Source of the DNA: an uncultured archaeon
GTDB lineage: Archaea > Asgardarchaeota > Thorarchaeia > Thorarchaeales > CAZPUN01
Assembly (NCBI GenBank): GCA_964589775.1
Contig: CAZPUN010000021.1
Coordinates: forward strand, 146,629-178,628
Reading direction: 5' to 3'
Length of the DNA stretch: 32,000 nucleotides
The notes beneath the pieces are model-generated. The model had not been told where the DNA came from and made no database searches. It was given only the letters and a program-made list of their open reading frames with translations. Numbering within the stretch: the stretch's first letter is position 1; each line of letters begins with the position of its first letter. Positions 4-29,809 of the stretch are shown here, piece by piece. Position numbers and translations under genes: made by a program.

Positions 4-3000
4 TTGAGAATTATTGTCCGCGTTATATACACTTCTGTAGATTCTCCTGATTATCCTCAAGTTGTAACTCCATACGGTGTAAATGTTCAAATAAGTTTGA
101 CATACCATGATGAAGACCATAGCACAGTCATTTCAGGTGGTTCTGTGGTTTCTAATGCTTCATTAGATAGTCAAACTGATAATGGTGATGGTACTTATAC
201 TGTCGTTATTGATGTAAGTAGTTATGGAATTGGCACTCATGTATTCTACTTCAATGTGTCGAAATCCAATTATGATACTGCTACGATTGTAATCCGTATT
301 GTGATACGTCGCTATTTAACAACCCTTACTTATGACCAGATCAATGCAGTACCGTCTGGTGATGATCTTGTCATTACTCTTCATTACACAGTGTCTGACT
401 CTGAAAGTGGACATGATGGTGAATATATCATAGGAGCTACAATTATTACAAACTATTCACAATCTGATTATACCTTCTCATGGGATTCTACGAATCATGT
501 ATACATTCTTACAATCTATGGGTCTGCGATTTCATCCGTGGGTGTTCACTGGATAATTATTAATGCGACCACTGCTGGCTCTGCAAGTGATATTTATGCA
601 AATGCTACTACTAATGCAATTTCATTTACAGTTCGTGCAATCTCTACTACAACAACTTCGCCTGACTATCCTAGAGTTGTAGTTCCCTATGGCAATAATG
701 TTAATGTATCAGTAACTTACAAAGATCTAGACCATAATACAGTTATCTCCTCCGCATCTGTAAGTGCAAATGTTTCTATACAATGGACCGATAATGGTGA
801 CGGAACATATTCGATTAGAATTTTGTCGAACAGTTATAATCTTGGAACATATCATGTTAATATAACACTTACAAAAGCAAACCACGATTCATCATCTATT
901 GTGATCGATGTGCAGGTCCGAAGATATTACACGTCTCTAACTTATGATGCTATTTCCGAAACGCCGTATGATGAGAATGTTACCATTATTATTCATTATG
1001 TTGTTGATGATGCTGAAAGTGGACATGATGGTGAAGGTATTACGGGACTTGCATCGAATGTCTGGTGTAATTATACGTTCACAGCTTATGAATTGGGGAA
1101 CGGAGACTACAAGATCGTTATTTCAAAATCCGATCTAACCAGTCTTGGGCGTTATTATGTTACAATTGAAATAAACTCAACTGGTACTAGTCCGGACATC
1201 TATACGGCTCAAACATTAACTAGTGTGCCGTTTACAATTCGTAGAATTTACACATCTCTTACATACGAAGGTGTCGGCACAATACCGACTGGTGAAGATG
1301 TAGTTATTACAATTCATTATACCGTATTAGATTCAGCTAGTAGTCACAATGGTGAAGGCCTTACAGGTCTATCATCACACATATGGTGTAATTATAGTTC
1401 ATATACCGTAACTGAAGTTGGAAGTGGTACATATAGAATAACAATTTCAGCATCAGAAGTTTCAACAATTGGTACTTATGGTGTATTAATTGAAGCAAAT
1501 ACCACTGGAACTACAAATGATGTCTACCAAGCACAGCAATTAGATAGTGTAAGTTTCGAGATTAGAAGATTACATACGGTTCTTACATATGATCCCATTC
1601 AGAATACTCCATGGGGCGAAAATGTCACAATTCGTGTTAGATATAAAGTTGTAGATTCTTCTTCCTCACATGATGGCGAATATATTAACATTCCAACTTC
1701 CGGTATCACTACAAATGCTTCTGTTTATACGGTTATTCAAGTGAGTACTGGCATATTTGATATTGAAATAAACGCATCTGTATTTGATAGTATTGGCACT
1801 TATCATATATTTGTGCAAGCGACAAGTTCAGGTAGTGGAAATGATATTTATGACACTGCAACAATTGAATATGCTCTTGTAAATATTCGCCGTATTGAAA
1901 CAAGATTGATATATAGTAGTATTCCATCGATTCCATGGGATCAAGACGTATCGATTACAGTCCTATTCAAAGTTGATGATTCTGCAAGCGCTCATGATGG
2001 CGAAGGACTTGCCGGCTATGCAAGCTATTTTGCTTCTAACTTCACAATAAAATCCGTAACCGATAAAGTAAATGGTTATTACGAAGTTGTACTATCAAAG
2101 AGTGGATTTGCCAGTATTGGTTCGTACGTTGTTCTGATTCAAGTTGATGCAGAAAGTGCAAGTCCGAGTGTCTATGCAAATTCTGAAATCACTGTAAGTG
2201 TCTCAATCCGTGAGCGATATAGTCGTCTTGATTATGATCCTCCTGCAAGTACACCATACCTCGACAATGTTACATTTACAGTCTACTTTATTGATGATGA
2301 TAACGGAACTTATGTTGATGCTACTACGTGGAAATTAAATGATTCACTCGTTGAAGGTGTGGATTACTGGATAATTCGGCAGTCTCGTGGTGTATTTGTC
2401 GTCAAAATAAATACAACAAATCTTTCTTATGGTAGTTGTTATGTTGAATTAAACTTCACTCGAGCAAATTATGCGTGGGCATCACGTAATGTGTCTTTCA
2501 CAATTCGTCTAATTTATACAGATGCGATACCCTCCGTGTCCAGTCTATCAATTCCAATGGGCGAATCGATGTCATTCACAGTTGATTTCACGGATCGAGA
2601 CCATGACACGCCAATTTCCGGAGCTACCGTTATTGCTAATTGGACATATTTCCATTCTTCCGGTGAGGCAAACTATACCTACTCATATAATTCTGTTACC
2701 GGTAAATACACTATTACAATCTACACTGAAAGTGACGATCCACTCGGTACGTGGGAAGTTGTCTTTAACTTTACAAAGAGTAATTATGTAAATGGAACCT
2801 TCTCAATTAAAGTAACTATACGCACGCATTCCACATCATTTTCATTAGATACCGCTGCAATACCTACAAGCTATTCTTCAAGCTTCAAAGTTAATGTATC
2901 ATATTACGATGAAGATTTATCCGCAGGAATTGGAAATAGCTCCGGCTATGTAATGATGTATGCAAAGAACGCTTCTGGTAATATTTTATTCACCGTGGGA

Positions 3001-6000
3001 GCGAATTCAGATCTTGGTACCGGTCATTACACATTTGTAATTCCTGCAGATCAATGGCATGTAATTGGAAAGTTCTCAGTTGTATTGTATGTGAATTGGA
3101 CAGGCCCCACGCCTAAATATTATAATTTGACATTGAACATCACACTTACGGTTCGTGGCTCTGCAACATCTCTATCTATTTCAGAAGGTGCTCAACCTGC
3201 TCAATACTACGAAAACATATCCTTTGTGATTTACTATGAGGATAGTGATAATAATACTGGAATAACCAATTCATCAGCATATGGTGCAAATGTACATATC
3301 TATATTCAGTGCTTAACAGAATCAGTAGATGTATCATTAATCGATATAATAGAAATAAACCCGACGACAGACCCCGGTTTATACCGTATTCAATTTAATA
3401 CATCCATTCTGTCCAAGTTTGGCTACTTCGAATTTCGTGTCTGGGCGAATTGGACTCGTGGAGCAATGCCATTATATGAAAACCAGACTTTAGTTATTGG
3501 AATCCGTGTCACATCGCGGCAGACATCAGTATCTTACGTGCCGCCATATACAACTGCGTATGCCGAAATTGCTGCTTTCAATTTCTCATATCATGATGTC
3601 TTGAAGGACAATGCGTATATCGGTAATAGTTCTAGTATGCATATTCAGTTGAACGGAATAGATCCACAGTACTACAATATTACGTATTTCAGCTCTGACA
3701 AAGTCTTCAGAATTACAATTAATACAACTGTGTTCGGTGTGGGCGACTTTACAATGTATCTAAATATAACTTGGACTGGTGTTCCATATTATTACAACCA
3801 GACCTCGGTATCCGTACCTATTACTGTTCGATATCGTAATTCCTATCTTGACTCGCAAGCTACAGAACCGGTTCGATATTCTGATAATATTACGCTAGTA
3901 TTTACTTATACTGACCTCGATGATATGGTTGATATAAGTGGAAGCAATCTATCAATTTCATGTACCGGTCAGAACCTTGAAGGATATTATACAATTTACG
4001 ATAATGGTGATGGTACGTATAATGTCGTATTGGATACTGACGCATTTACTGAGCCCGGTACATATACAATTCATGCAGTCATGATTTATAATGGAAATAG
4101 ATATTTGTCTAATGCAACACGGGATGTACAAATTCGGGTGCTGTACCGATTCTCAGTTGCAACTGCAGATCCAAGTGGTCAACTTCCATATGGTTTAACA
4201 TTTACGATTTATCTGCATTTCTATGATGGTGATACAACTAATGCCATTACAAATAGTTCAGGACATGTTGGATTCTATATTACATCACCCGCAAATCTCA
4301 ATTATAGTATAGCTTGGTGGTATAGCGACATTTACAATTTAACAATCTATGACTCCGATTTGCCTCTTGGTAGTACTACTATGAATATCACATTCACATA
4401 TGATCATATTAGTCCGTTTTATAGTAGTGCAAATGCGGTCTTTACAATAACAATTCGTGCTAGAACATCCGACTTTGGCGTTTCCGACAGTCCATTACCA
4501 ACATCCTATCTTGAACTGCTTAACTTCTCAGTAACATATATAGATCTTGATACCTCAGAAGGAATTTCCGGAGCTACAATATCTCTTATCGGTATTGGGA
4601 CTTCCGAAACTTTGACTGAAAATGTAAACTATTGGATACATTATGCAGGTAATGGCGTTTATGAAATTTCAATCAATACTACTGCACTTGGTGCTCCCGG
4701 AGACTATAACGTAAATGTGACTGCAAGTTGGAGTGGAGCTCCTTATTACGCATCACGGCACGTGATTGTAGTCACAACGGTATCTCAAAGGGATAGCTCA
4801 CTTCTATTTGGAATAAGTCCTGTAGATACTCAATATCTTGATAATGTAACCTTTACAGTTCGATTCCTTGATGGTATTACTCATGAGCCCATCGATATTG
4901 CAACATCAAACTTTGAAATCCGAGTAGGACCAAGCCAGCGATTGCTAGCATCAAACGAATTTACTATTGTAAAATCTGATGGTTATTACACAATCCAAAT
5001 AAATACAACAGTTTTAAGCTCAAACCTTGTGTCCGACTATATGATAAATGTTACTGCAGTATGGCCTTCTGGAGATGCACCATATTACTTCTCTGATTGG
5101 ATCGCTACAACAATTTCAACAAAGGGCCGTAATTCCGAATTGAAATTTGAAAATGTTGCAGGAACGCCTATCGGAGATAATATTACAATTGTATTCCGTG
5201 TGACAGATGCCGAGCGTGGAACTGGTATCTCTAATGCAAACATAACTTTAATTTGTCTCAATAGAACTGTACAATATTGGCTTAGCGTTAATAATGGTAC
5301 GTATACAATTCTCGTAAATACTAGCGACTTTAATGAACTTGGAATATATCATTTCAAGATTAATATCACGTGGGATGAAGGTGTTCCTCCATTCTATTCA
5401 AGTTATTATAATAATCCAGTTCAGGGAACTGTGAAAGGAATTTCAACTAGGCTCTCAGCGGATGCTGCCAATCCCGGAAATGTACCATATTCAGATAATA
5501 CTACTATCACAGTACACTTCCTGGATATCGATCATAATCTCAGAGGTGTAACTGGTGCTACAATTTCAATCAATTATACGGGCCCATGGACGTTCTATTC
5601 ACTTGGTGGTGGAGATTACCTGATTCGTATTAATACTACTCAGATCACAACAAATGGTCTGACCAAGATTGTAATTACTGCAAGTCGGCAATTCTATGAA
5701 AATCAATCTGTTATGGTTGCATTCAATGTACGTGATATTTACACATTACTATCATGGGAAATCAAATCCGACCTTATTGCTGGTGATAATGTAACTGTAA
5801 TTCTAACGTACAAAGATCTCGACCATACTGGAGTGTATCTTGGCACCGCAGATTTAACATGCGATTGGACAAACACAACCGGAAAACCATACACGATTAT
5901 CAATTATGGAAATGGCACGTATAAGCTCACATTAGTGACTGCTAGTCTCGGAGTACAAGTCATTACGGTACACGTTATTGCAAAGCTCGCACACTATGCG

Positions 6001-8643
6001 GATGGAACTGCTGGATTTGATATTGCATTAAAGAACGTTCCAACTTCGCTTACACCTTACAAAGACGTACTTCGTGTAATTTGGGGAGAACAAGTACAAA
6101 TTGGTGTAATCTTCAATGATACTTATCATAATGTATTTGTTTCAAGCGCAAATGTGACATTTACGTGGAATGGAACACTAAGGCAAATGAGTGAAATATC
6201 CGCCGGTAATTATTCATACATTGTAGATACAACCGAATCACCATTTGGTACATATGTACTTTCAGTATCTGCACAATTAACAAATTATGAGACTAGTGTT
6301 GTAATAATCACATTAATCGTAGATCGTGTGCCTACAGAATTAATTGAAGTTGAAAATCATTATTCGATAACAGTTACAACTGTAGGTAGTTTTGACTTAA
6401 TATTCCTTTACAATGATACTCATAACGGCATTCCAATTGGAAGTGCGACTTTATCATATTCTTGGGAAAATGCACAAGGTACAATTCCATCTAATGGCAC
6501 TAATGGATTCTACGCTATTAGCTTGACTGCATTGGGTGTTCCTGTAGGTACTTATACATTGATAGTTACAGCAACTCGTGATAATTACGAATCTGCTAAC
6601 GCGTATATTGCAGTTACTGTAATTGTCACACCTACACAGATTATATTAGAAAACAACCCCCAAACTGTTAATTATCGTGATGTTGCTAACTTTACTGTAC
6701 AATTCCTCACGATGGATGGTATACCGATCACAGGTGCTCAAGTAAGCTATACTACTGTTGGTATCTCTGGAAACTTGACAGAAATAGGTAATGGTTGGTA
6801 CCAGTTATACTTTAATACGTCTGCGATTTCCGTCGGATCTTTCAGTGTAACCATAGTTGCAAAGGCTGAAGGATTCAAGACTTCATTTGATAATTATGTG
6901 CTTCAAATTACACCAATATCGACTACATTAAGTGGATTTGAAAGTTCTGTATCTCAGATCTATGGTGATGTTGTAATTGTAGACTTTAACTTCTCAGAAT
7001 CTTCTACAGGACGCGCAATTGTCGGTGCTATCGCAACGTATGAAGGTGCAGCAGGAAGCGGAAACTTAATCGAAATAGATAATGGTATCTATCGAATGAT
7101 ACTTAATACTACGGCAGTTACACCCGGTCAATACAAAGTTTCACTACAATTCCGCAAACTGAACTTCCAGACACAAAGAGTTACGATTGACCTGATTGTA
7201 AATCCAGTGCCCACTGAAGCTCGCGGTCCCACTGTCTTCGTCACACCAATTGGTGATTCTATGCAAATTCATATACAATTCTGGGATACGCACAATGATG
7301 TTGTAATTCGTGGAGCTACTATTGCAGGTTCTTGGAAGTATGGTCCAGTTAGCTTTGATGAGGATCCCAATGCTCCAGGAAATTACACATTTACCGTTGA
7401 AGGTAATATACCAATTGGAAGTTATGAGATGCGTCTATCTCTCTACAAAGAAAACTACTCATTAGTTGAAACCACTCTAACTATTGTTGTACGACCTATT
7501 CATACGCAAATTACTTCAGAAATGCCCGTACTAAACTTAATCTCATTACAATCAACATCCATTACAATTCGATATATGGATATAGACCATAATATTCCAA
7601 TTATAGGTGCTAACATCAGTGATTTCCAAGCTGTTGAATTTGTCAGTAATGAAATTGTCACAGATCAATTTACAGACTTGCACATTACCGAATTAGGAAA
7701 CGGATACTATAACATATCGTTCAAAGTTCCAGAAGTAACCCAAGATGTCATGACATATTCATTGAACATAACCTTCTATAAAGAGAACTATGATGCTGCT
7801 TCCATCGTATTCACAATAAACGTAAAAAGTCCTACATCAGACACTATGCGAACCATTATCATGACTGGTGGAATTATTGTTGCGGCATTTATTGTTCTAT
7901 TCGGAATAGTGTATGTTAAAGTTCTCAATGTTCCTAAGAAGATACGTGTCATTAACACATTGGTAAAATCACTATCTAAGAACAAGATTCCTAAAGCCCC
8001 ATCTGGAGTTCCACAACGAAATGAAATAATCTCAGGACTATGGAATGACCTGCTTGAACCATTTGAAATCCAAAAGGATGCATCTCAAATTCCGATGGAA
8101 AGCGTTCCAGTCGATGTTCCAGAACTTGGAGAACTATTGATCAAATTAGTTGAGCTCACAGGAATTACTCCAGAAGAACTTGAAGACTTCCAGGCTGAAA
8201 TTGCAAAGATGCGGCCAAGTGAACGTATCAACTTCGTAAAAGAAGTCATTCGCCAAGAAGCAGTACGAAAAGCAAAAGCGGCTGGTAAAGACTTGGATGA
8301 ATTCTTACAAGAATTAGAAGAACGTACCGCTCGTAAGATTTCTCGCGAACATGGTACTTTACCCTCAACTACAACAAAGCCAAAAGAAGAACCTGAAGAA
8401 ATTATCCCTGTTGAACTAGAAAAAGAACCCGAAGAGGCACCAGAAAAGATCGAATATATCCCTGAGCACGAAACAGAAAAGTTAACCGAATTTGAGCTCC
8501 AAAACTTACGAAAGGAACTAGAAGAGATGGGAATCGAGCCAGGTGAACTTGATATTATTATGACACAAGCCAGAAATCTATCTCGCGATCTTGTTGATGA
8601 ACTTATCAAGACTCTTAAGGAACGCATGAAAAAGGATGAGTAA
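4..8643 (+). CDS. Giant single-pass membrane surface protein with many tandem ~100-aa Ig-like beta-sandwich repeats; probably 5'-truncated by the window edge
   Basis: 2879-aa ORF open from the window edge with no signal peptide visible. Repeated motifs include Y-x-D-x-D-H, DNGDGTY and S-x-HDGE. It is T/S/N/Y-rich with many N-x-S/T sequons. One TM helix (IIMTGGIIVAAFIVLFGIVYV, ~7855-7917) precedes a ~240-aa charged cytoplasmic tail. Confidence 0.9.
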   Translation: MRIIVRVIYTSVDSPDYPQVVTPYGVNVQISLTYHDEDHSTVISGGSVVSNASLDSQTDNGDGTYTVVIDVSSYGIGTHVFYFNVSKSNYDTATIVIRIVIRRYLTTLTYDQINAVPSGDDLVITLHYTVSDSESGHDGEYIIGATIITNYSQSDYTFSWDSTNHVYILTIYGSAISSVGVHWIIINATTAGSASDIYANATTNAISFTVRAISTTTTSPDYPRVVVPYGNNVNVSVTYKDLDHNTVISSASVSANVSIQWTDNGDGTYSIRILSNSYNLGTYHVNITLTKANHDSSSIVIDVQVRRYYTSLTYDAISETPYDENVTIIIHYVVDDAESGHDGEGITGLASNVWCNYTFTAYELGNGDYKIVISKSDLTSLGRYYVTIEINSTGTSPDIYTAQTLTSVPFTIRRIYTSLTYEGVGTIPTGEDVVITIHYTVLDSASSHNGEGLTGLSSHIWCNYSSYTVTEVGSGTYRITISASEVSTIGTYGVLIEANTTGTTNDVYQAQQLDSVSFEIRRLHTVLTYDPIQNTPWGENVTIRVRYKVVDSSSSHDGEYINIPTSGITTNASVYTVIQVSTGIFDIEINASVFDSIGTYHIFVQATSSGSGNDIYDTATIEYALVNIRRIETRLIYSSIPSIPWDQDVSITVLFKVDDSASAHDGEGLAGYASYFASNFTIKSVTDKVNGYYEVVLSKSGFASIGSYVVLIQVDAESASPSVYANSEITVSVSIRERYSRLDYDPPASTPYLDNVTFTVYFIDDDNGTYVDATTWKLNDSLVEGVDYWIIRQSRGVFVVKINTTNLSYGSCYVELNFTRANYAWASRNVSFTIRLIYTDAIPSVSSLSIPMGESMSFTVDFTDRDHDTPISGATVIANWTYFHSSGEANYTYSYNSVTGKYTITIYTESDDPLGTWEVVFNFTKSNYVNGTFSIKVTIRTHSTSFSLDTAAIPTSYSSSFKVNVSYYDEDLSAGIGNSSGYVMMYAKNASGNILFTVGANSDLGTGHYTFVIPADQWHVIGKFSVVLYVNWTGPTPKYYNLTLNITLTVRGSATSLSISEGAQPAQYYENISFVIYYEDSDNNTGITNSSAYGANVHIYIQCLTESVDVSLIDIIEINPTTDPGLYRIQFNTSILSKFGYFEFRVWANWTRGAMPLYENQTLVIGIRVTSRQTSVSYVPPYTTAYAEIAAFNFSYHDVLKDNAYIGNSSSMHIQLNGIDPQYYNITYFSSDKVFRITINTTVFGVGDFTMYLNITWTGVPYYYNQTSVSVPITVRYRNSYLDSQATEPVRYSDNITLVFTYTDLDDMVDISGSNLSISCTGQNLEGYYTIYDNGDGTYNVVLDTDAFTEPGTYTIHAVMIYNGNRYLSNATRDVQIRVLYRFSVATADPSGQLPYGLTFTIYLHFYDGDTTNAITNSSGHVGFYITSPANLNYSIAWWYSDIYNLTIYDSDLPLGSTTMNITFTYDHISPFYSSANAVFTITIRARTSDFGVSDSPLPTSYLELLNFSVTYIDLDTSEGISGATISLIGIGTSETLTENVNYWIHYAGNGVYEISINTTALGAPGDYNVNVTASWSGAPYYASRHVIVVTTVSQRDSSLLFGISPVDTQYLDNVTFTVRFLDGITHEPIDIATSNFEIRVGPSQRLLASNEFTIVKSDGYYTIQINTTVLSSNLVSDYMINVTAVWPSGDAPYYFSDWIATTISTKGRNSELKFENVAGTPIGDNITIVFRVTDAERGTGISNANITLICLNRTVQYWLSVNNGTYTILVNTSDFNELGIYHFKINITWDEGVPPFYSSYYNNPVQGTVKGISTRLSADAANPGNVPYSDNTTITVHFLDIDHNLRGVTGATISINYTGPWTFYSLGGGDYLIRINTTQITTNGLTKIVITASRQFYENQSVMVAFNVRDIYTLLSWEIKSDLIAGDNVTVILTYKDLDHTGVYLGTADLTCDWTNTTGKPYTIINYGNGTYKLTLVTASLGVQVITVHVIAKLAHYADGTAGFDIALKNVPTSLTPYKDVLRVIWGEQVQIGVIFNDTYHNVFVSSANVTFTWNGTLRQMSEISAGNYSYIVDTTESPFGTYVLSVSAQLTNYETSVVIITLIVDRVPTELIEVENHYSITVTTVGSFDLIFLYNDTHNGIPIGSATLSYSWENAQGTIPSNGTNGFYAISLTALGVPVGTYTLIVTATRDNYESANAYIAVTVIVTPTQIILENNPQTVNYRDVANFTVQFLTMDGIPITGAQVSYTTVGISGNLTEIGNGWYQLYFNTSAISVGSFSVTIVAKAEGFKTSFDNYVLQITPISTTLSGFESSVSQIYGDVVIVDFNFSESSTGRAIVGAIATYEGAAGSGNLIEIDNGIYRMILNTTAVTPGQYKVSLQFRKLNFQTQRVTIDLIVNPVPTEARGPTVFVTPIGDSMQIHIQFWDTHNDVVIRGATIAGSWKYGPVSFDEDPNAPGNYTFTVEGNIPIGSYEMRLSLYKENYSLVETTLTIVVRPIHTQITSEMPVLNLISLQSTSITIRYMDIDHNIPIIGANISDFQAVEFVSNEIVTDQFTDLHITELGNGYYNISFKVPEVTQDVMTYSLNITFYKENYDAASIVFTINVKSPTSDTMRTIIMTGGIIVAAFIVLFGIVYVKVLNVPKKIRVINTLVKSLSKNKIPKAPSGVPQRNEIISGLWNDLLEPFEIQKDASQIPMESVPVDVPELGELLIKLVELTGITPEELEDFQAEIAKMRPSERINFVKEVIRQEAVRKAKAAGKDLDEFLQELEERTARKISREHGTLPSTTTKPKEEPEEIIPVELEKEPEEAPEKIEYIPEHETEKLTEFELQNLRKELEEMGIEPGELDIIMTQARNLSRDLVDELIKTLKERMKKDE

Positions 8644-23788: not shown

Positions 23789-25021
23789 TCAAATAAAGTC
23801 CAATAATGTTGTTTGTGTTAAAATTCCTTTCAATACATCGGATTTTGAAATCCATTCTTCTTTTGGAATTCTCAGTCTCCTTGTCATTTGTTCGATGGCT
23901 TCGTGTGCCGTGTTAAAGCGTTCTGGTGGTTTTGCCATTGCCCGCCTGATCGTTTCTCTTACTTCCCATACACCTACTGGAAGATAATATTCATCACTAA
24001 TTTCTCGTAGTATGACCGCTGTAGCAATCCGCCCTCTTTTGTATAATGCCTCTAGAACAGCCAGTCGCCCGGCATAATATCCTCCTGCCTCTTTAACGGC
24101 ATAATTGCTGCGACCACGTGCGCCCTCATTTTCAGCAACAATTACTGGCTTTTTCGCCATTGCGGTCCAGAGTCCGCCGGGCATCCATGCCTCAAGTTGT
24201 TCAAATGTCCAAGCGCCCGGTGCAAGTAGTATTTCGTAATGATTTCCAATATATTCCTCATGATATACTTCATAATCATTTATTGAAGATTTGTCCGCTA
24301 GCAATTTCATTAGTTTCTTTCCTATAATATCGTCAATTGCAGTTATTGACCATCGAGTCGGTACTAGCTTCTTATTCTTAAGACCCAATACACCTGCAGA
24401 AAACACTCTTGTTAGGTAATACACATCAAATCCATGCTTGTACAATTCCCAGACAGCTGTAGTAGCGCGTGTATCTCCCTCTGAAAGCATATCTACAGTT
24501 CTCGGAATCTTCGGATTACTCCCAAGTTTCACTTGGACAACTTCACCACTCGGTCCCATTGGTTGTGTAACTGCACTGTAAAAAATCGATACTTTCGGCG
24601 GCTTGCTCAATTCCAGCTCCGTATCCACTGAACGTACAGAAAGTGCAATATCCACAGATCGACTCCATACCTTATTTGAACTAGGATTCTTCACTCGTAC
24701 TTTTGTCATGCCTCGTACCATAACTGAACGTAACCTGATTATTTCATCAATTGGTTTTCCATACCATTCTGCAGGATTATCATACAATGGTGGATTGTCT
24801 ACATCCGCTGCAATTGTCATTGGTCCTGCAAAAACTGCTGGGTATCCTGTCCTACCTACAAATACCGATGGTGGCGATGGTCCGTATATGTCTCTATCCA
24901 TGTCTACTAAAATCGGCTGAAGTGCATTTAGCTTCTCCAGAATCGGACACTTTGGCCTACCACATAGATTCCTGCTCATCTTACAAACTATGCATAGTTC
25001 CGGAGTTATCGGAATGTTCAT
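23789..25021 (-). CDS. nreA: Archaeal DNA repair protein NreA with C-terminal PIP box
   Basis: CxxCK..R.LCG...CP, GPSPPSVFVGR.GYP, LVPTRWSITAIDD, GGYYA, PVGVW.VRE and terminal QTTLLDFI. Start at ATG 25021 behind GAGGTG. Confidence 0.93.
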   Translation of the reverse strand: MNIPITPELCIVCKMSRNLCGRPKCPILEKLNALQPILVDMDRDIYGPSPPSVFVGRTGYPAVFAGPMTIAADVDNPPLYDNPAEWYGKPIDEIIRLRSVMVRGMTKVRVKNPSSNKVWSRSVDIALSVRSVDTELELSKPPKVSIFYSAVTQPMGPSGEVVQVKLGSNPKIPRTVDMLSEGDTRATTAVWELYKHGFDVYYLTRVFSAGVLGLKNKKLVPTRWSITAIDDIIGKKLMKLLADKSSINDYEVYHEEYIGNHYEILLAPGAWTFEQLEAWMPGGLWTAMAKKPVIVAENEGARGRSNYAVKEAGGYYAGRLAVLEALYKRGRIATAVILREISDEYYLPVGVWEVRETIRRAMAKPPERFNTAHEAIEQMTRRLRIPKEEWISKSDVLKGILTQTTLLDFI

Positions 25022-25167
25022 CGTTCGCACTTCCACCTCTATTATGTGAATATACACTTAGCAATTTATGTCTTTGTTTAAATTTTTATTTAACTATATA
25101 TAAAAAAGTTTATATTGATTTATGTATTTATTATATCATGTAATCAAATATTTTGCGGGTGAAACCT

Positions 25168-26205
25168 ATGCAAATTGAACAGGTTGTTTGTAAGGATCTT
25201 GTCAAGGTATACAAGAAGAAGAAGCGACTTAGTTTACTTCCCCCTAGATCAGAAGTAACGGAGATTCATGCATTAGATGGATTAAGCTTTACAATCTATG
25301 AAGGCGAAATTTTTGGTTTATTGGGGCCTAACGGTGCGGGTAAGACGACCACGATTCAGATTATAGCGGGTCTTTTACTTCCAGATAGTGGAGAGGTTGA
25401 AGTTGCTGGAGTAGATGCAATTAGAAATCCTAATTTAGTTAAGCGGATTGTTGGTGTGGTTTCTGGGGGTAATCCGCGACAATTATACAATAAGCTTACG
25501 GCCTATGAGAATTTAGAATATTTTGGAAGGCTTTATGGTATTCCAGATAAGGAATTAAAGTCACGAATTCTAGAGCTGCTTGAGTTAGTTAAGTTAGCTG
25601 ACCGTTCAGATGAAGAAATTGAGAAGTTTAGTGCCGGTATGAAGCAGCGATTGTTAATTGCCAGAGGATTGCTTCATGATCCCGACGTACTTTTATTAGA
25701 CGAGCCCACAGTTGGTCTTGATCCTAAGTCTTCTCGGGATTTGCGAAAACTTATTCGCGATGAGATTGGGAAGAGGGAAGGTAAGGCAATTCTGCTTACA
25801 ACGCATGAAATGAATGTTGCTGAAGAGCTTTCTGATAGGATTGCAATTATCAACAGGGGTCGTCTGGTTGCATTAGATACGCCGTCTGGTCTCAAACAGA
25901 ATTTTAAGCTTGGTAGATTGATTGAAATAATTGTTGAGACTGATGATGGTATTCCAGTATCTCAGATGCAAAATATTAGCGGTGTTCGTTCGATTTCGGT
26001 TACAAGCATTGAGAATAGCATCAATCGCAAACGGGTTTTAATTGAGACCCTTAATGGCGACAATATTATTCCAGATTTAGTGGACCTATTAATTCGTCAA
26101 TATAACTATAAGATAATGAATCTGACTCAGAAAGAACCTAGTTTGGAAGATATTTTTATTATGGCGACATCTGAAACTGAGGAGGTCATGGCAATTGCTA
26201 AGTAA
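25168..26205 (+). CDS. ABC-2 (DrrA-like) exporter ATP-binding subunit
   Basis: GPNGAGKTT, FSAGMKQR, LLLDEPT and TTH. ATG at 25168 follows GGGTGA. Confidence 0.93.
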   Translation: MQIEQVVCKDLVKVYKKKKRLSLLPPRSEVTEIHALDGLSFTIYEGEIFGLLGPNGAGKTTTIQIIAGLLLPDSGEVEVAGVDAIRNPNLVKRIVGVVSGGNPRQLYNKLTAYENLEYFGRLYGIPDKELKSRILELLELVKLADRSDEEIEKFSAGMKQRLLIARGLLHDPDVLLLDEPTVGLDPKSSRDLRKLIRDEIGKREGKAILLTTHEMNVAEELSDRIAIINRGRLVALDTPSGLKQNFKLGRLIEIIVETDDGIPVSQMQNISGVRSISVTSIENSINRKRVLIETLNGDNIIPDLVDLLIRQYNYKIMNLTQKEPSLEDIFIMATSETEEVMAIAK

Positions 26206-27019
26206 GAATGTTGGTCCGGTTCATTGGTGGCAGATTACTAAGGGCACATTCAAGAAGGAAATGTTGTTCTTCTACAGATACAAAGGTTGGTTGATTTCCA
26301 GTATTATACAGCCAATAATTTGGATATTGCTGTTCGGTTATCTTGGCAAAGGATTTGGAATCAAGGAAACAAGTGCGGGCGTTGATTTTACATCTTATAT
26401 GATCCTTGGTGTTGTGAGCTTAATGTTGATCAGTCAGACCATGTGGGGTTCTGGGAATGCTCTACGAACCGAGCAGTATCGCGGCACTCTCGAATCTATT
26501 ATGACTGCTCCTTCAAATATAATCTCTATCCTCATTGGTTTCTCATTCGTTGATCTTGTACAGTCCGCATACATGATGGGGGTATCTGTATCATTTGGTT
26601 TGCTTATATTTGGTTTTGTGGGCAATCTTGTAGATTTTGTCGCGCTTATTGTTGTCATGGGCATGATCATTTTCAGTCTGTTCGGTTTTGGTCTCTTATT
26701 CGCTGGAATTACTTTAATGATCAAGCAATCCGGAGCGCTCATAAATCTGATACAGCCCATAATTTTCCTTCTGAGTGGGATGTTCTTTCCAGTATCTGCA
26801 CTACCTGAACCGGTTCGTACAATTGGTTTATCCTTGCCAATCACACAAGGATTAATGGCATTACAGGACGTTGTTCTTCGTGGTGCAACTCTGACTGATG
26901 TCGGGTTCCAGATATTCTATCTATTTGCGAGTGGTGTTGTGCTCGGACTGTTTGGATATTATGTATTACGAAGGCTCATGCAAAAAGCAAGGAAGCTTGG
27001 TCTCTATGGAACATTCTAG
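26195..27019 (+). CDS. ABC-2 type permease
   Basis: Six TM segments, E...GTLE.I..AP and LSGMFFPV..LP motifs; overlaps the end of the ATPase gene. Confidence 0.92.
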   Translation: MLSKNVGPVHWWQITKGTFKKEMLFFYRYKGWLISSIIQPIIWILLFGYLGKGFGIKETSAGVDFTSYMILGVVSLMLISQTMWGSGNALRTEQYRGTLESIMTAPSNIISILIGFSFVDLVQSAYMMGVSVSFGLLIFGFVGNLVDFVALIVVMGMIIFSLFGFGLLFAGITLMIKQSGALINLIQPIIFLLSGMFFPVSALPEPVRTIGLSLPITQGLMALQDVVLRGATLTDVGFQIFYLFASGVVLGLFGYYVLRRLMQKARKLGLYGTF

Positions 27020-27052
27020 TTAAAATATTTAAAGAGGTATGATATAGAGTAA

Positions 27053-27424
27053 TTGAAATTTATGGAGCTGCAAATCATGAGGATAGAGTTCAAGTCGCTC
27101 AAGGAACTTGCGGACACACTAAAAGTTCTCTCAAATGTGAAACGTCTTGCGTTATTGGCATCGCTAGCTGAAGGACGTAAGTTTCCCAAGGAACTGAGCG
27201 AAGAGCTTAACATGGCATATCCTATCGTGCATTTGCAGCTCAAAAATCTTGAAAAACGTGGTTTGGTTAAGTCCAATTATGAGGTTGGGACTGATAAATC
27301 TAGCCCTTATGTTAAGCGTTATTTTGAGTTAATCGATTTTGAAATTGTTGTAACCCCGGAACTTATCAAAGAACTTGCTAAGGTTACGGATAATAATGAA
27401 AGTAATAATGAAGAGGAGGATTAA
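27053..27424 (+). CDS. ArsR-family winged HTH regulator
   Basis: LKVLSNVKRLALLASL....ELSEEL.MAYP.VHLQLK.LEK.GLV...KRYF. Start uncertain. Confidence 0.85.
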   Translation: MKFMELQIMRIEFKSLKELADTLKVLSNVKRLALLASLAEGRKFPKELSEELNMAYPIVHLQLKNLEKRGLVKSNYEVGTDKSSPYVKRYFELIDFEIVVTPELIKELAKVTDNNESNNEEED

Positions 27425-27426
27425 AT

Positions 27427-27744
27427 ATGTCTGGACGTATAGCTGCTATGGCTGCTAGTGCGATTGCAATTGGCTTAGGCGTTCCTGCCCTACTTATATA
27501 TGCTGCTGCCGTATATCATCTCGATCTTATCTTTACGGGTATCATGATATTTCTTGCCTTGCTCGGTGCTGTTGGTGCACCTGCAGTGATTGGTGCTTTG
27601 TCTTATCAAGAAATGGATGATTCAAGCTATTTGCGAAGGCAAAACTCTATTTTGCGCTCGGGACTTGCCGAAGCCTTAAAGCAAATCGATGAATTAAATG
27701 ATAATCTTGAGAAATTGCTTGATATACTAAAGGCGGAGGTATAA
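27427..27744 (+). CDS. Small 2-TM protein with C-terminal coiled coil
   Basis: Two hydrophobic helices, then heptads (LAEALKQIDELNDNLEKLLDIL). GGAGG RBS. Confidence 0.8.
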   Translation: MSGRIAAMAASAIAIGLGVPALLIYAAAVYHLDLIFTGIMIFLALLGAVGAPAVIGALSYQEMDDSSYLRRQNSILRSGLAEALKQIDELNDNLEKLLDILKAEV

Positions 27745-27973: not shown

Positions 27974-28167
27974 CTAACATACTCCCCGCATTGAGATGCG
28001 AGGGTTCTGCGTATAGGCTATCCAGCGGTAGCCATTTCGCGCTTATACTCGCCGTGTTCCGACGAGGAATCTTTGATTATCGCTCCAGCTCTTTAGTATG
28101 TTTAGTTCCATTAAGATTCGGATAATCTTCACTGTTTTGAAAAACGATGCTTTCTCGCAGAGTGTTT
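27974..28167 (-). mobile_element. Non-autonomous IS200/IS605-family mini-element (PATE-like), copy A, 194 bp
   Basis: Minus strand: TTAC|AAACACTCTGCGAG-AAAG-hairpin left end. Right end is GAAC-CCTCGCAT/ATGCGGGG-AGTATG-TTAG. Homologous to 29239-29510; no ORF. Confidence 0.85.
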
Positions 28168-28236
28168 GTAAAAGTTCTCAGTTATTCTAAAAAAAGTTGA
28201 AAGTTCTGAAATTTTACTTTATTTAACTGGCACTAA

Positions 28237-28270
28237 GAATGTCACCTTTTTAGATGCGGGAGAGTGTCAA
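28237..28270 (+). mobile_element. Orphan, degenerate IS200/IS605 right end
   Basis: GAAT...GCGGGAGAGTG-TCAA, 34 nt, with the same guide-to-cleavage spacing as copy B; the hairpin is decayed. Confidence 0.55.
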
Positions 28271-29025
28271 ACTGCTTTTGCAATTATTATTACTTGTGGT
28301 GAATTTTCTTGGTCAAAAGGATTTTCCTTAAAGTCACCATAAGCTTTTTCGATTCGGAATCCGACGCGTTCGAGAATGTCTTTTAGTTCATCATAGTATA
28401 TTGGTGTTAGTCTCGATATGTGTGTTTTCATTTCCCAAAATCCACTATTGTTAACAAGTTTGATTAAGTGTATTTCCGTCTCGTCATTTGATGATATGAA
28501 GAAGCGAACGAAAACGATCTCCCCATTCTCAGTAGTACGCGTAATTAATGGTAGATATCTTACTCTTTCTTTGCGTACCCACTTGAAATTTCGTAGATGT
28601 ATTATGATAATTCCATCTTTCTTAATATTACTTCTTAGCTCTCTGAGACAATCTGGTATTTCGTCTTTGTGATGGAGTGCAAGACTGTCTCCAAGACAAA
28701 TGGCTGCATCATATTCGCCCTTAATACTTTGGCTGATATCCTGACATTTAGAAACTGAAAACATAATTGTCAAATTTTCATTTCGTGCGAGATTCTTGGC
28801 TTTTTCAATCATAAAAGGATCTTCATCAATTCCACGAACCATATACCCTTTCTTCGCAAGTTCTACAATGTGTCTTCCAGTTCCGCAAGATGTATCTAAG
28901 ACCGTCTGCACATTATATTCCTTGAATACTTTTTCCAAAAATGGAATCTCTCTTTCTAATCGGCTTTTCCACGGTATTAATTGATCATAATCTTCTGGAT
29001 GTACCTGTGATTGCATTTTGGGCAC
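28267..29025 (-). CDS. Class I SAM-dependent methyltransferase (glycine/sarcosine N-methyltransferase-like fold)
   Basis: VLDTSCGTGRH, GID...MI..A, YDAAICLGDSL, and C-terminal GF....YGDF...PF. GGAG RBS. Confidence 0.88.
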   Translation of the reverse strand: MPKMQSQVHPEDYDQLIPWKSRLEREIPFLEKVFKEYNVQTVLDTSCGTGRHIVELAKKGYMVRGIDEDPFMIEKAKNLARNENLTIMFSVSKCQDISQSIKGEYDAAICLGDSLALHHKDEIPDCLRELRSNIKKDGIIIIHLRNFKWVRKERVRYLPLITRTTENGEIVFVRFFISSNDETEIHLIKLVNNSGFWEMKTHISRLTPIYYDELKDILERVGFRIEKAYGDFKENPFDQENSPQVIIIAKAV

Positions 29026-29238
29026 TCCTACTCGCGCTTGTGTATCATGCCCCTTATTTTGTGTACTTAAAATAATTTTGCATTATGCATTGAAAAGTGA
29101 TTCTTTATAATTGCATAAAAAAGTTTTATTTCACAGCTGCTATGGTCATTTTTGTCGATGAAAGAACAATTTTATTTTACTTAGAAAATACTTTTATCTC
29201 ATGGCGTACATATTATGTAGTATGAATTTATTTTTTAC

Positions 29239-29510
29239 AAACACTCTGCGAGAAAGCATCGCTTTAGAAAGCGGTGATGCATCACATAAAATAAAAGTTC
29301 ATTGTGTTTGTATTTATAATAAATCAAATAATTTGAGAATTTAGAATAAGTCGCGACTTGAATGCATGCGGCGCATCCACGGATTGCTTCCAAAAAGCTG
29401 GAGCGATAACAAGCTCCCTCATTGGAGCACGACGAGTATATGCGCGAAATGGCTACTCTTGAGTAGCTTATACATAGAATCCTCGCATATCACTGCGGGG
29501 AGTATATCAT
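29239..29510 (+). mobile_element. Non-autonomous IS200/IS605-family mini-element, copy B, 272 bp, with a tnpB 3' relic and omegaRNA-like region
   Basis: TTAC (29235-38)|..AAAG (29253-56), hairpin CATCGCTTT-AG-AAAGCGGTG, and ATAAGTCGCGACTTGAATGCA encoding I-S-R-D-L-N-A. Right end is GAAT (29477-80), hairpin, GGGGAGTATA-TCAT. Confidence 0.87.
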
Positions 29511-29527: not shown

Positions 29528-29809
29528 ATGATGTCTCAAATACCTATTAACCTTGATAAGATTAAAAAGGAGGACATAGATAAAGAAATTCTCCGGGTTG
29601 GGATCATTGCAGAATTAGATGCAATTAATCTATACGAGCAAATGGCTGCACTTGCGCAAAATGACTACATTAAGAAAACATTATTGGATATTGCACGCGA
29701 AGAGAAAGCCCATGTTGGCGAATTTCACGCCCTCCTATTAAGACTTGATGAAGAGCAAAAAGACGAACTTGAAGAAGGCAAGAAGGAAGTCGATGAACTT
29801 TTTGAATGA
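29528..29809 (+). CDS. Short ferritin-like protein (encapsulated-ferritin/Flp type)
   Basis: DKEILR.GIIAELDAINLYEQMA...LLDIAREEKAHVGEF (E..E/ExxH ferroxidase half-site). GAGGTGA RBS at 29513-29519. Confidence 0.9.
   Translation: MMSQIPINLDKIKKEDIDKEILRVGIIAELDAINLYEQMAALAQNDYIKKTLLDIAREEKAHVGEFHALLLRLDEEQKDELEEGKKEVDELFE

Follow-up and report, generated by a model that had tools for sequence, protein, structure and literature searches.

Two protein-less elements around a methyltransferase gene

The window, by which we mean the whole 32,000-nt stretch analyzed here (positions 146,629 to 178,628 of contig CAZPUN010000021.1, from an uncultured Asgard archaeon), carries two short elements, copy A and copy B. 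They are arranged back to back, with a methyltransferase gene between their left ends, and a ferritin-like gene lies just beyond B. Elsewhere in the window, a very long open reading frame (4-8643, forward strand, 2,879 aa) runs from the window start, and the region upstream of A (23789-27744) holds an archaeal Nre DNA-repair gene (reverse strand), an ABC transporter pair, an ArsR-type regulator, and a 105-aa open reading frame without a Pfam match. The features that concern us are as follows.

27974-28167, reverse strand: copy A, 194 nt, short subfamily (consensus, 220 nt), with an additional 23-nt deletion directly 3' of the left hairpin
28168-28171, reverse strand: TTAC target and left cleavage site of A, in the flank, outside the element
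28150-28153, reverse strand: AAAG left guide of A, positions +15 to +18 (rule in PMC5934647)
28130-28149, reverse strand: left subterminal hairpin of A; T-A replaces C-G, one C-A mismatch, and the AT 3' of the hairpin is now AA
28092-28115, reverse strand: possible frameshifted trace of the TnpB C-terminal motif in A, LNGTKNILK-like if 2 nt are missing; not significant
27974-28088, reverse strand: shared right segment of A, stem-loops of the likely omegaRNA scaffold and then the right end
28004-28007, reverse strand: GAAC guide of A, preceding the right hairpin
27984-28003, reverse strand: right hairpin of A
27974-27977, reverse strand: terminal TTAG of A (family consensus, TCAG)
28267-29025, reverse strand: class I SAM-dependent methyltransferase, 252 aa (PF13649, E = 4e-15), between the two left ends
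29235-29238, forward strand: TTAC target and left cleavage site of B, in the flank
29239-29510, forward strand: copy B, 272 nt, long subfamily (consensus, 266 nt)
29253-29256, forward strand: AAAG left guide of B
29257-29276, forward strand: left hairpin of B
29352-29397, forward strand: likely tnpB 3'-end relic of B, with R-D-L-N-A readable
29398-29510, forward strand: shared right segment of B, likely omegaRNA scaffold
29477-29480, forward strand: GAAT guide of B, preceding the right hairpin
29481-29500, forward strand: right hairpin of B
29507-29510, forward strand: terminal TCAT of B (family consensus, TCAG)
29528-29809, forward strand: ferritin-like gene (Rubrerythrin/EncFtn-like), whose likely ribosome-binding site AGAGGTGA begins 2 nt after the right end of B

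The two copies share an identical 29-nt left segment, as the first-pass annotation had reported: the reverse complement of 28145-28173 is identical to 29233-29261, and the match extends no further. Within the elements lie 23 of these 29 nt, the remainder being the TTAC target and two flanking T residues. A repeat search delimited the arms as 28129-28173/29233-29277 (89% identity) and 27972-28073/29411-29512 (79%). The earlier by-eye estimate of about 80% identity in the right segment held up on alignment (92 of 114 aligned bases, 81%), a likeness far above chance (BLAST E of 1.7e-24 for the right part). Both copies are indeed protein-less, with no open reading frame of 80 aa in the 194 nt of A or the 272 nt of B.

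The right hairpins fold better than shuffled sequences (z scores of −2.85 and −2.55). The left hairpin of A folds no better than shuffles (z of 0.34) because of its T-G ancestry at one pair and its extra C-A mismatch. The C-G/T-A change first read as compensatory is real (alignment column pair 33/43), but the short subfamily is already T-G at that column pair, making it a single event via a T-G intermediate.

We found no support for a meaning of the inverted arrangement. Random placement in intergenic gaps gave 1.04 such close pairs, with a 0.65 probability of at least one, and three pairs this close were seen. In the single-strand mechanism of IS200/IS605 elements, cargo must sit between the left and right ends on one strand. 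Neither strand here has left end, gene, and right end in that order, so the methyltransferase gene is a neighbor and not cargo. We consider it highly improbable that the pair is a functional unit, whether as a composite element with the methyltransferase gene, as an inversion switch, or as the product of local inverted duplication. The identical 29-nt segment would suit such a unit, as would the back-to-back orientation of three of the five closest nontandem pairs in the genome. The order of the ends, however, is wrong for carrying the gene on either strand, and the shared 23 nt correspond to the family consensus, which 3 copies genome-wide reproduce exactly and 8 with at most two changes. The two copies also fall in different subfamilies, each nearer to a copy on another contig (for A, C23:117122, 88% identical; for B, C57:6091, 79%). 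Since such pairs are expected by chance and the geometry bars a composite element, we regard the inversion of A and B as incidental.

A genome-wide family with TTAC and TCAG boundaries

A and B belong to a family of 41 to 46 copies in the 2.16-Mb genome, as counted with BLAST, nhmmer, and a covariance model (which gave 41 matches). All are intergenic, none lying within a credible gene, and joining their flanks to restore interrupted genes produced no credible case (the frame on contig C25 begins after the junction). Of 28 left ends, 18 have TTAC where it should lie, compared with 0.8 expected by chance, and the right end has the consensus TCAG (T in 23, C in 22, A in 22, and G in 18 of 31 entries, one entry being counted twice). 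The flanks break at these two tetranucleotides, with information content rising at TTAC and falling after TCAG. No target duplication was found: among 17 complete copies, none had more than 2 nt when TTAC was included (3 nt when it was left out), and the mismatched controls likewise reached 2 nt. Subterminal palindromes are present at both ends, that of the left end being degraded in A, and there are no terminal inverted repeats. Copies followed by a second, tandem right end occur at C21:44145-44497 (L089) and C64:25946-26233 of this genome, and left-end-only remnants without a recognizable right end at C39:50107-50174, C39:61625-61742, and C59:20887-21053, as also at L069, L071, and L074.

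In IS608 of Helicobacter pylori, the left end is TTAC/AAAG and the right end TCAA/GAAT, A+16 pairs with T-3 and A+17 with T-4, and AT follows the hairpin (PMC5934647). The family left end is built alike, with AAAG at +15 to +18 (from +16 in IS608), 14 nt inside TTAC and just 5' of a 9-pair hairpin, and then AT in the family consensus. The right guide is also of the GAA type, but the consensus pairs a GAAC guide with a TCAG terminus in place of GAAT with TCAA, and no tnpA or tnpB is present. We take GAAC with TCAG to be the matching variant under the fourth-position pairing rule. Of the IS608-like ends described by the first-pass annotation, the TTAC target, the AAAG guide 5' of the left hairpin, the hairpins, and the GAAC (A) and GAAT (B) guides are all in place, whereas the right end does not follow the GAAT/TCAA rule. 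The combinations GAAC/TTAG in A and GAAT/TCAT in B had been read as following IS608 rules; both termini are mutated from the family consensus, and TTAG and TCAT are decay of TCAG.

A tnpA/tnpB parent had been anticipated. No direct parent was found, but homologous ends lie on tnpA+tnpB elements in two other Asgard genomes. The first (L133, G031:C338) is autonomous, 1,541 nt long, and encodes Y1_Tnp and TnpB. Its left end reads TTAC, 14 nt, AAAG, hairpin, GATGAAT and its right end GAAC, hairpin, GGAGTATGTCAG; the left end aligns to the family consensus with a score of 47 (shuffle maximum, 42), and model R1 matches the element essentially only at the right end (21 bits). In the second (L143, G313:C39), which is cut by the contig end, a family-type left end of nearly family sequence (GCGAGAAAGCA...GCGGTG.TGAATCGC) stands directly upstream of tnpA and a tnpB-like open reading frame. 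Both elements share the end layout of the family, but their RNA scaffolds differ, and we therefore regard them as sisters and not as the parent. Searches by DNA similarity, sequence pattern, and covariance model turned up no parent with the same scaffold; they covered 86 genomes of the same order and 400 of the same phylum, as well as GTDB genomes, viral contigs, plasmids, and phages. A metagenome scan returned matches only from the same organism. Empty sites were likewise not found; in the comparison set, this genome is the sole representative of its taxonomic family.

Three Lokiarchaeia genomes (G313, G206, and G319) contain a second protein-less family of about 240 nt (L046, L067, L068, L072, and L075), with 8 to 50 matches per genome. 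These minis have the same left end, a different scaffold, and a GAAT/TCAA right end, and TTAC precedes all of the 10 distinct sites inspected. An autonomous tnpA+tnpB element at G313:C39:10140 shares their left half. At the level of sequence, guide and cleavage site covary between the two families, GAAC/TCAG here and GAAT/TCAA in Lokiarchaeia. Found beneath one left-end type, the two combinations make a neat natural example of the guide rule; the family demonstrates no new mechanism.

Because of the family copies, the TTAC/TCAG boundaries, the lack of target duplication, and the end layout shared with tnpA+tnpB elements, we conclude that A and B are IS200/IS605-derived PATEs, a class that is already known. 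The class was defined from Haloquadratum walsbyi, among whose PATEs are heterogeneous families of a strain that has only broken tnpA genes (PMC3119063). The present family resembles them in having no coding capacity, no terminal inverted repeats, subterminal palindromes, a 4-nt target without duplication, many divergent copies, terminal-only fragments, and a host without intact tnpA. It differs in its Asgard host, its unrelated sequence, and its TTAC/TCAG ends, and strain-specific insertions are not demonstrable here. Protein-less, omegaRNA-encoding minis acted on in trans have been described in Geobacillus stearothermophilus (Meers et al., PMC10055086). Those ISGst minis likewise have both ends around an omegaRNA-like scaffold and covarying guide and cleavage motifs; TnpA and TnpB are present and were shown to be active there, whereas our assembly has neither gene. 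The available part of an archaea-wide survey reports IS200/IS605 elements in >65% of Asgard genomes and, within that part, gives no description of such minis (PMC13343696); the terms IS200, IS605, and TnpB are absent from two papers on Asgard mobile elements. The earlier remark that no description of PATE-like elements in Asgard archaea was known agrees with our finding no published account, although the class itself is published, and the family extends PATEs to these archaea.

Decay of the copies and the missing transposase

TnpA and TnpB were not found, either intact or as fragments, in the 96.75%-complete assembly (genes with PF01797, PF07282, or PF01385 are absent). A TSFICHGCG motif on contig C24 proved to be an off-frame reading of another gene. 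The relics, about 45 in number and roughly 0.5% of the DNA, thus sit in an assembly without a detectable IS200/IS605 gene; relics of this kind escape protein-based IS annotation and can pass for new noncoding RNAs.

Identity between a copy and its best neighbor ranges from 61 to 88%, and no pair exceeds 88%. Substitutions are mostly C>T and G>A (19% and 20%, respectively, for the long subfamily and 7% for the short one), a spectrum that suggests two past waves followed by drift. In the window, both copies are mutated at the right terminus; A in addition carries the hairpin mismatch and lacks the T that follows the left hairpin in the consensus. The first-pass annotation had thought the elements mobilizable in trans. 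Present mobility is unsupported, since the assembly contains no TnpA, TnpB, or parent and no copies more than 88% identical, and A and B are probably immobile at present.

We also weighed the idea that the family is still mobile, an unassembled tnpA/tnpB element moving the best-preserved copies in trans and their RNAs guiding TnpB, and we think it unlikely. The assembly is in 64 contigs and repeats often drop out of assemblies, so near-identical active copies and tnpA could be absent from it; moreover, genes with a TnpB domain occur in 34 of 40 genomes of the same order. Metagenome Ga0256914 contains two contigs (L065 and L066) of the same organism, which can be compared with C23 and C27. Five of the eight differences over 5.6 kb fall within two element copies, which make up 8% of the length, and all five point toward the family consensus, as collapsed reads from younger copies or gene conversion could produce. 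It is mainly on account of these differences that we keep hidden young copies in mind. Both metagenome copies, however, fill the same sites as in this genome, and continuing mobility is at odds with the lack of even fragmentary TnpA or TnpB, the 88% ceiling on identity, the mutated terminal tetranucleotides of A and B, and the damaged left hairpin of A.

Our preferred reading is that A and B are very probably copies of a non-autonomous IS200/IS605 mini-element (PATE) that inserted independently and have since decayed, and that they belong to a fossil family. Ancestral tnpB elements would have lost nearly all of their coding sequence, keeping the left end (TTAC target, AAAG guide, hairpin, and AT-rich stub), a scrap of the tnpB 3' end, an omegaRNA-like scaffold, and the right end (GAAC guide, hairpin, and TCAG). 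Single-stranded copies of these elements may then have been inserted at TTAC, with no duplication of the target, by a Y1 transposase acting in trans. There would have been two waves or more, the long form (B) spreading in an older one and the short form (A) in a younger one. The transposase would subsequently have been lost, the copies presumably drifting since.

Subfamilies, middles, and the RNA scaffold

The different middles of A and B reflect two subfamilies, one of about 266 nt (B) and one of about 220 nt (A, minus a further 23 nt). The two consensus sequences agree at 43 of 47 positions (91%) in the left end and at 105 of 114 (92%) in the right, and in the middle at 75% of the left stub (21 of 28 nt) and 59% of the relic (19 of 32). 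Because the middles differ so much more than the ends, the comparison favors two related parents, in line with the independent deletions first proposed, although the shortness of A is partly due to the later 23-nt deletion within its subfamily. Nested deletion of one mini-element is weakened by the same comparison but stays a serious rival: an origin of the short form by internal deletion of the long one, with one parent and without independent deletions, is in our judgment a real if less likely possibility. Its attractions are the collinear left stub in both forms, a middle-to-middle alignment bettered by only 3 of 2,000 shuffles, and a tree of the ends that does not separate the forms, being unresolved and of low support. 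The similarity of the ends next to so divergent a relic is harder to fit to it, as are several differences in the TnpB frame that look synonymous by eye (TTG/CTT, ATC/ATA, and CTC/CTA) and suggest divergence while the sequence was still coding.

In the long consensus, GFRMGCDLNA can be read, followed beyond a 5-nt duplication by SKNILKK; this resembles the DRDLNAxxNIL motif of TnpB. The consensus scored 18.6, compared with 10.2 ± 2.5 for shuffles (1 of 150 as high; p of about 0.01). In the profile test against shuffles, the TnpB zinc-finger part, the short-subfamily relic, and the single window copies were not significant, and 32 of 100 shuffles scored as high as the trace in A (28092-28115). 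The distance between relic and right end is 153 and 148 nt in the two subfamilies, compared with 163 nt in L133. This evidence is suggestive, and the middle is probably the 3' end of tnpB.

The right segment is probably an omegaRNA scaffold. Its predicted stems are 84% paired, with modest covariation slightly above that of shuffles, a signal that shared descent can also produce. The element had no match in Rfam, and guide targets at TTAC plus 12 nt were absent from the genome. Among viral contigs, the AT-rich 19-mer of A had five exact matches and that of B none, which we treated as chance. In the long subfamily, the relic (for example, L088:128-190 and window 29327-29397) can by eye be folded as nested stems (TTTGAGGAT/ATCCTCAAA and GCGA/TCGC), with a possible pseudoknot between a loop TTGAAT and the terminal ATGTCAG. 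Just 3' of the left hairpin, the family consensus (L096:~100-125) has a stretch, GAAAAGTTYATWAA, that resembles an archaeal BRE-TATA promoter; it is mostly removed by the 23-nt deletion in A and altered in B. A sigma-70 promoter scan, which does not cover archaeal promoters, was at chance level.

There is a slim chance that some copies were kept as expressed RNAs after the transposase and nuclease were lost, either as guides for an unassembled or incoming TnpB or, in the case of B, as a leader controlling the ferritin-like gene. Co-option of copies, B especially, to serve the next gene as a promoter, a leader, or a regulatory RNA seems to us similarly doubtful. The short distance between B and the likely ribosome-binding site, the position of B downstream of an AT-rich region with a palindrome, and the modest stem covariation speak for it. 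On the other side, the copies show no visible bias toward the orientation of the downstream gene (28 same and 16 opposite, most intergenic gaps of this genome being divergent or tandem), and the substitution spectrum resembles neutral drift. Co-option would be compatible with the fossil PATE explanation, as a side effect.

A perfect palindrome, TACATA-T-TATGTA (29207-29219), which may be bound by a regulator, lies just downstream of an AT-rich, TATA-like stretch in the gap between the divergent methyltransferase and ferritin-like genes. Copy B separates this palindrome from the ribosome-binding site of the ferritin-like gene.
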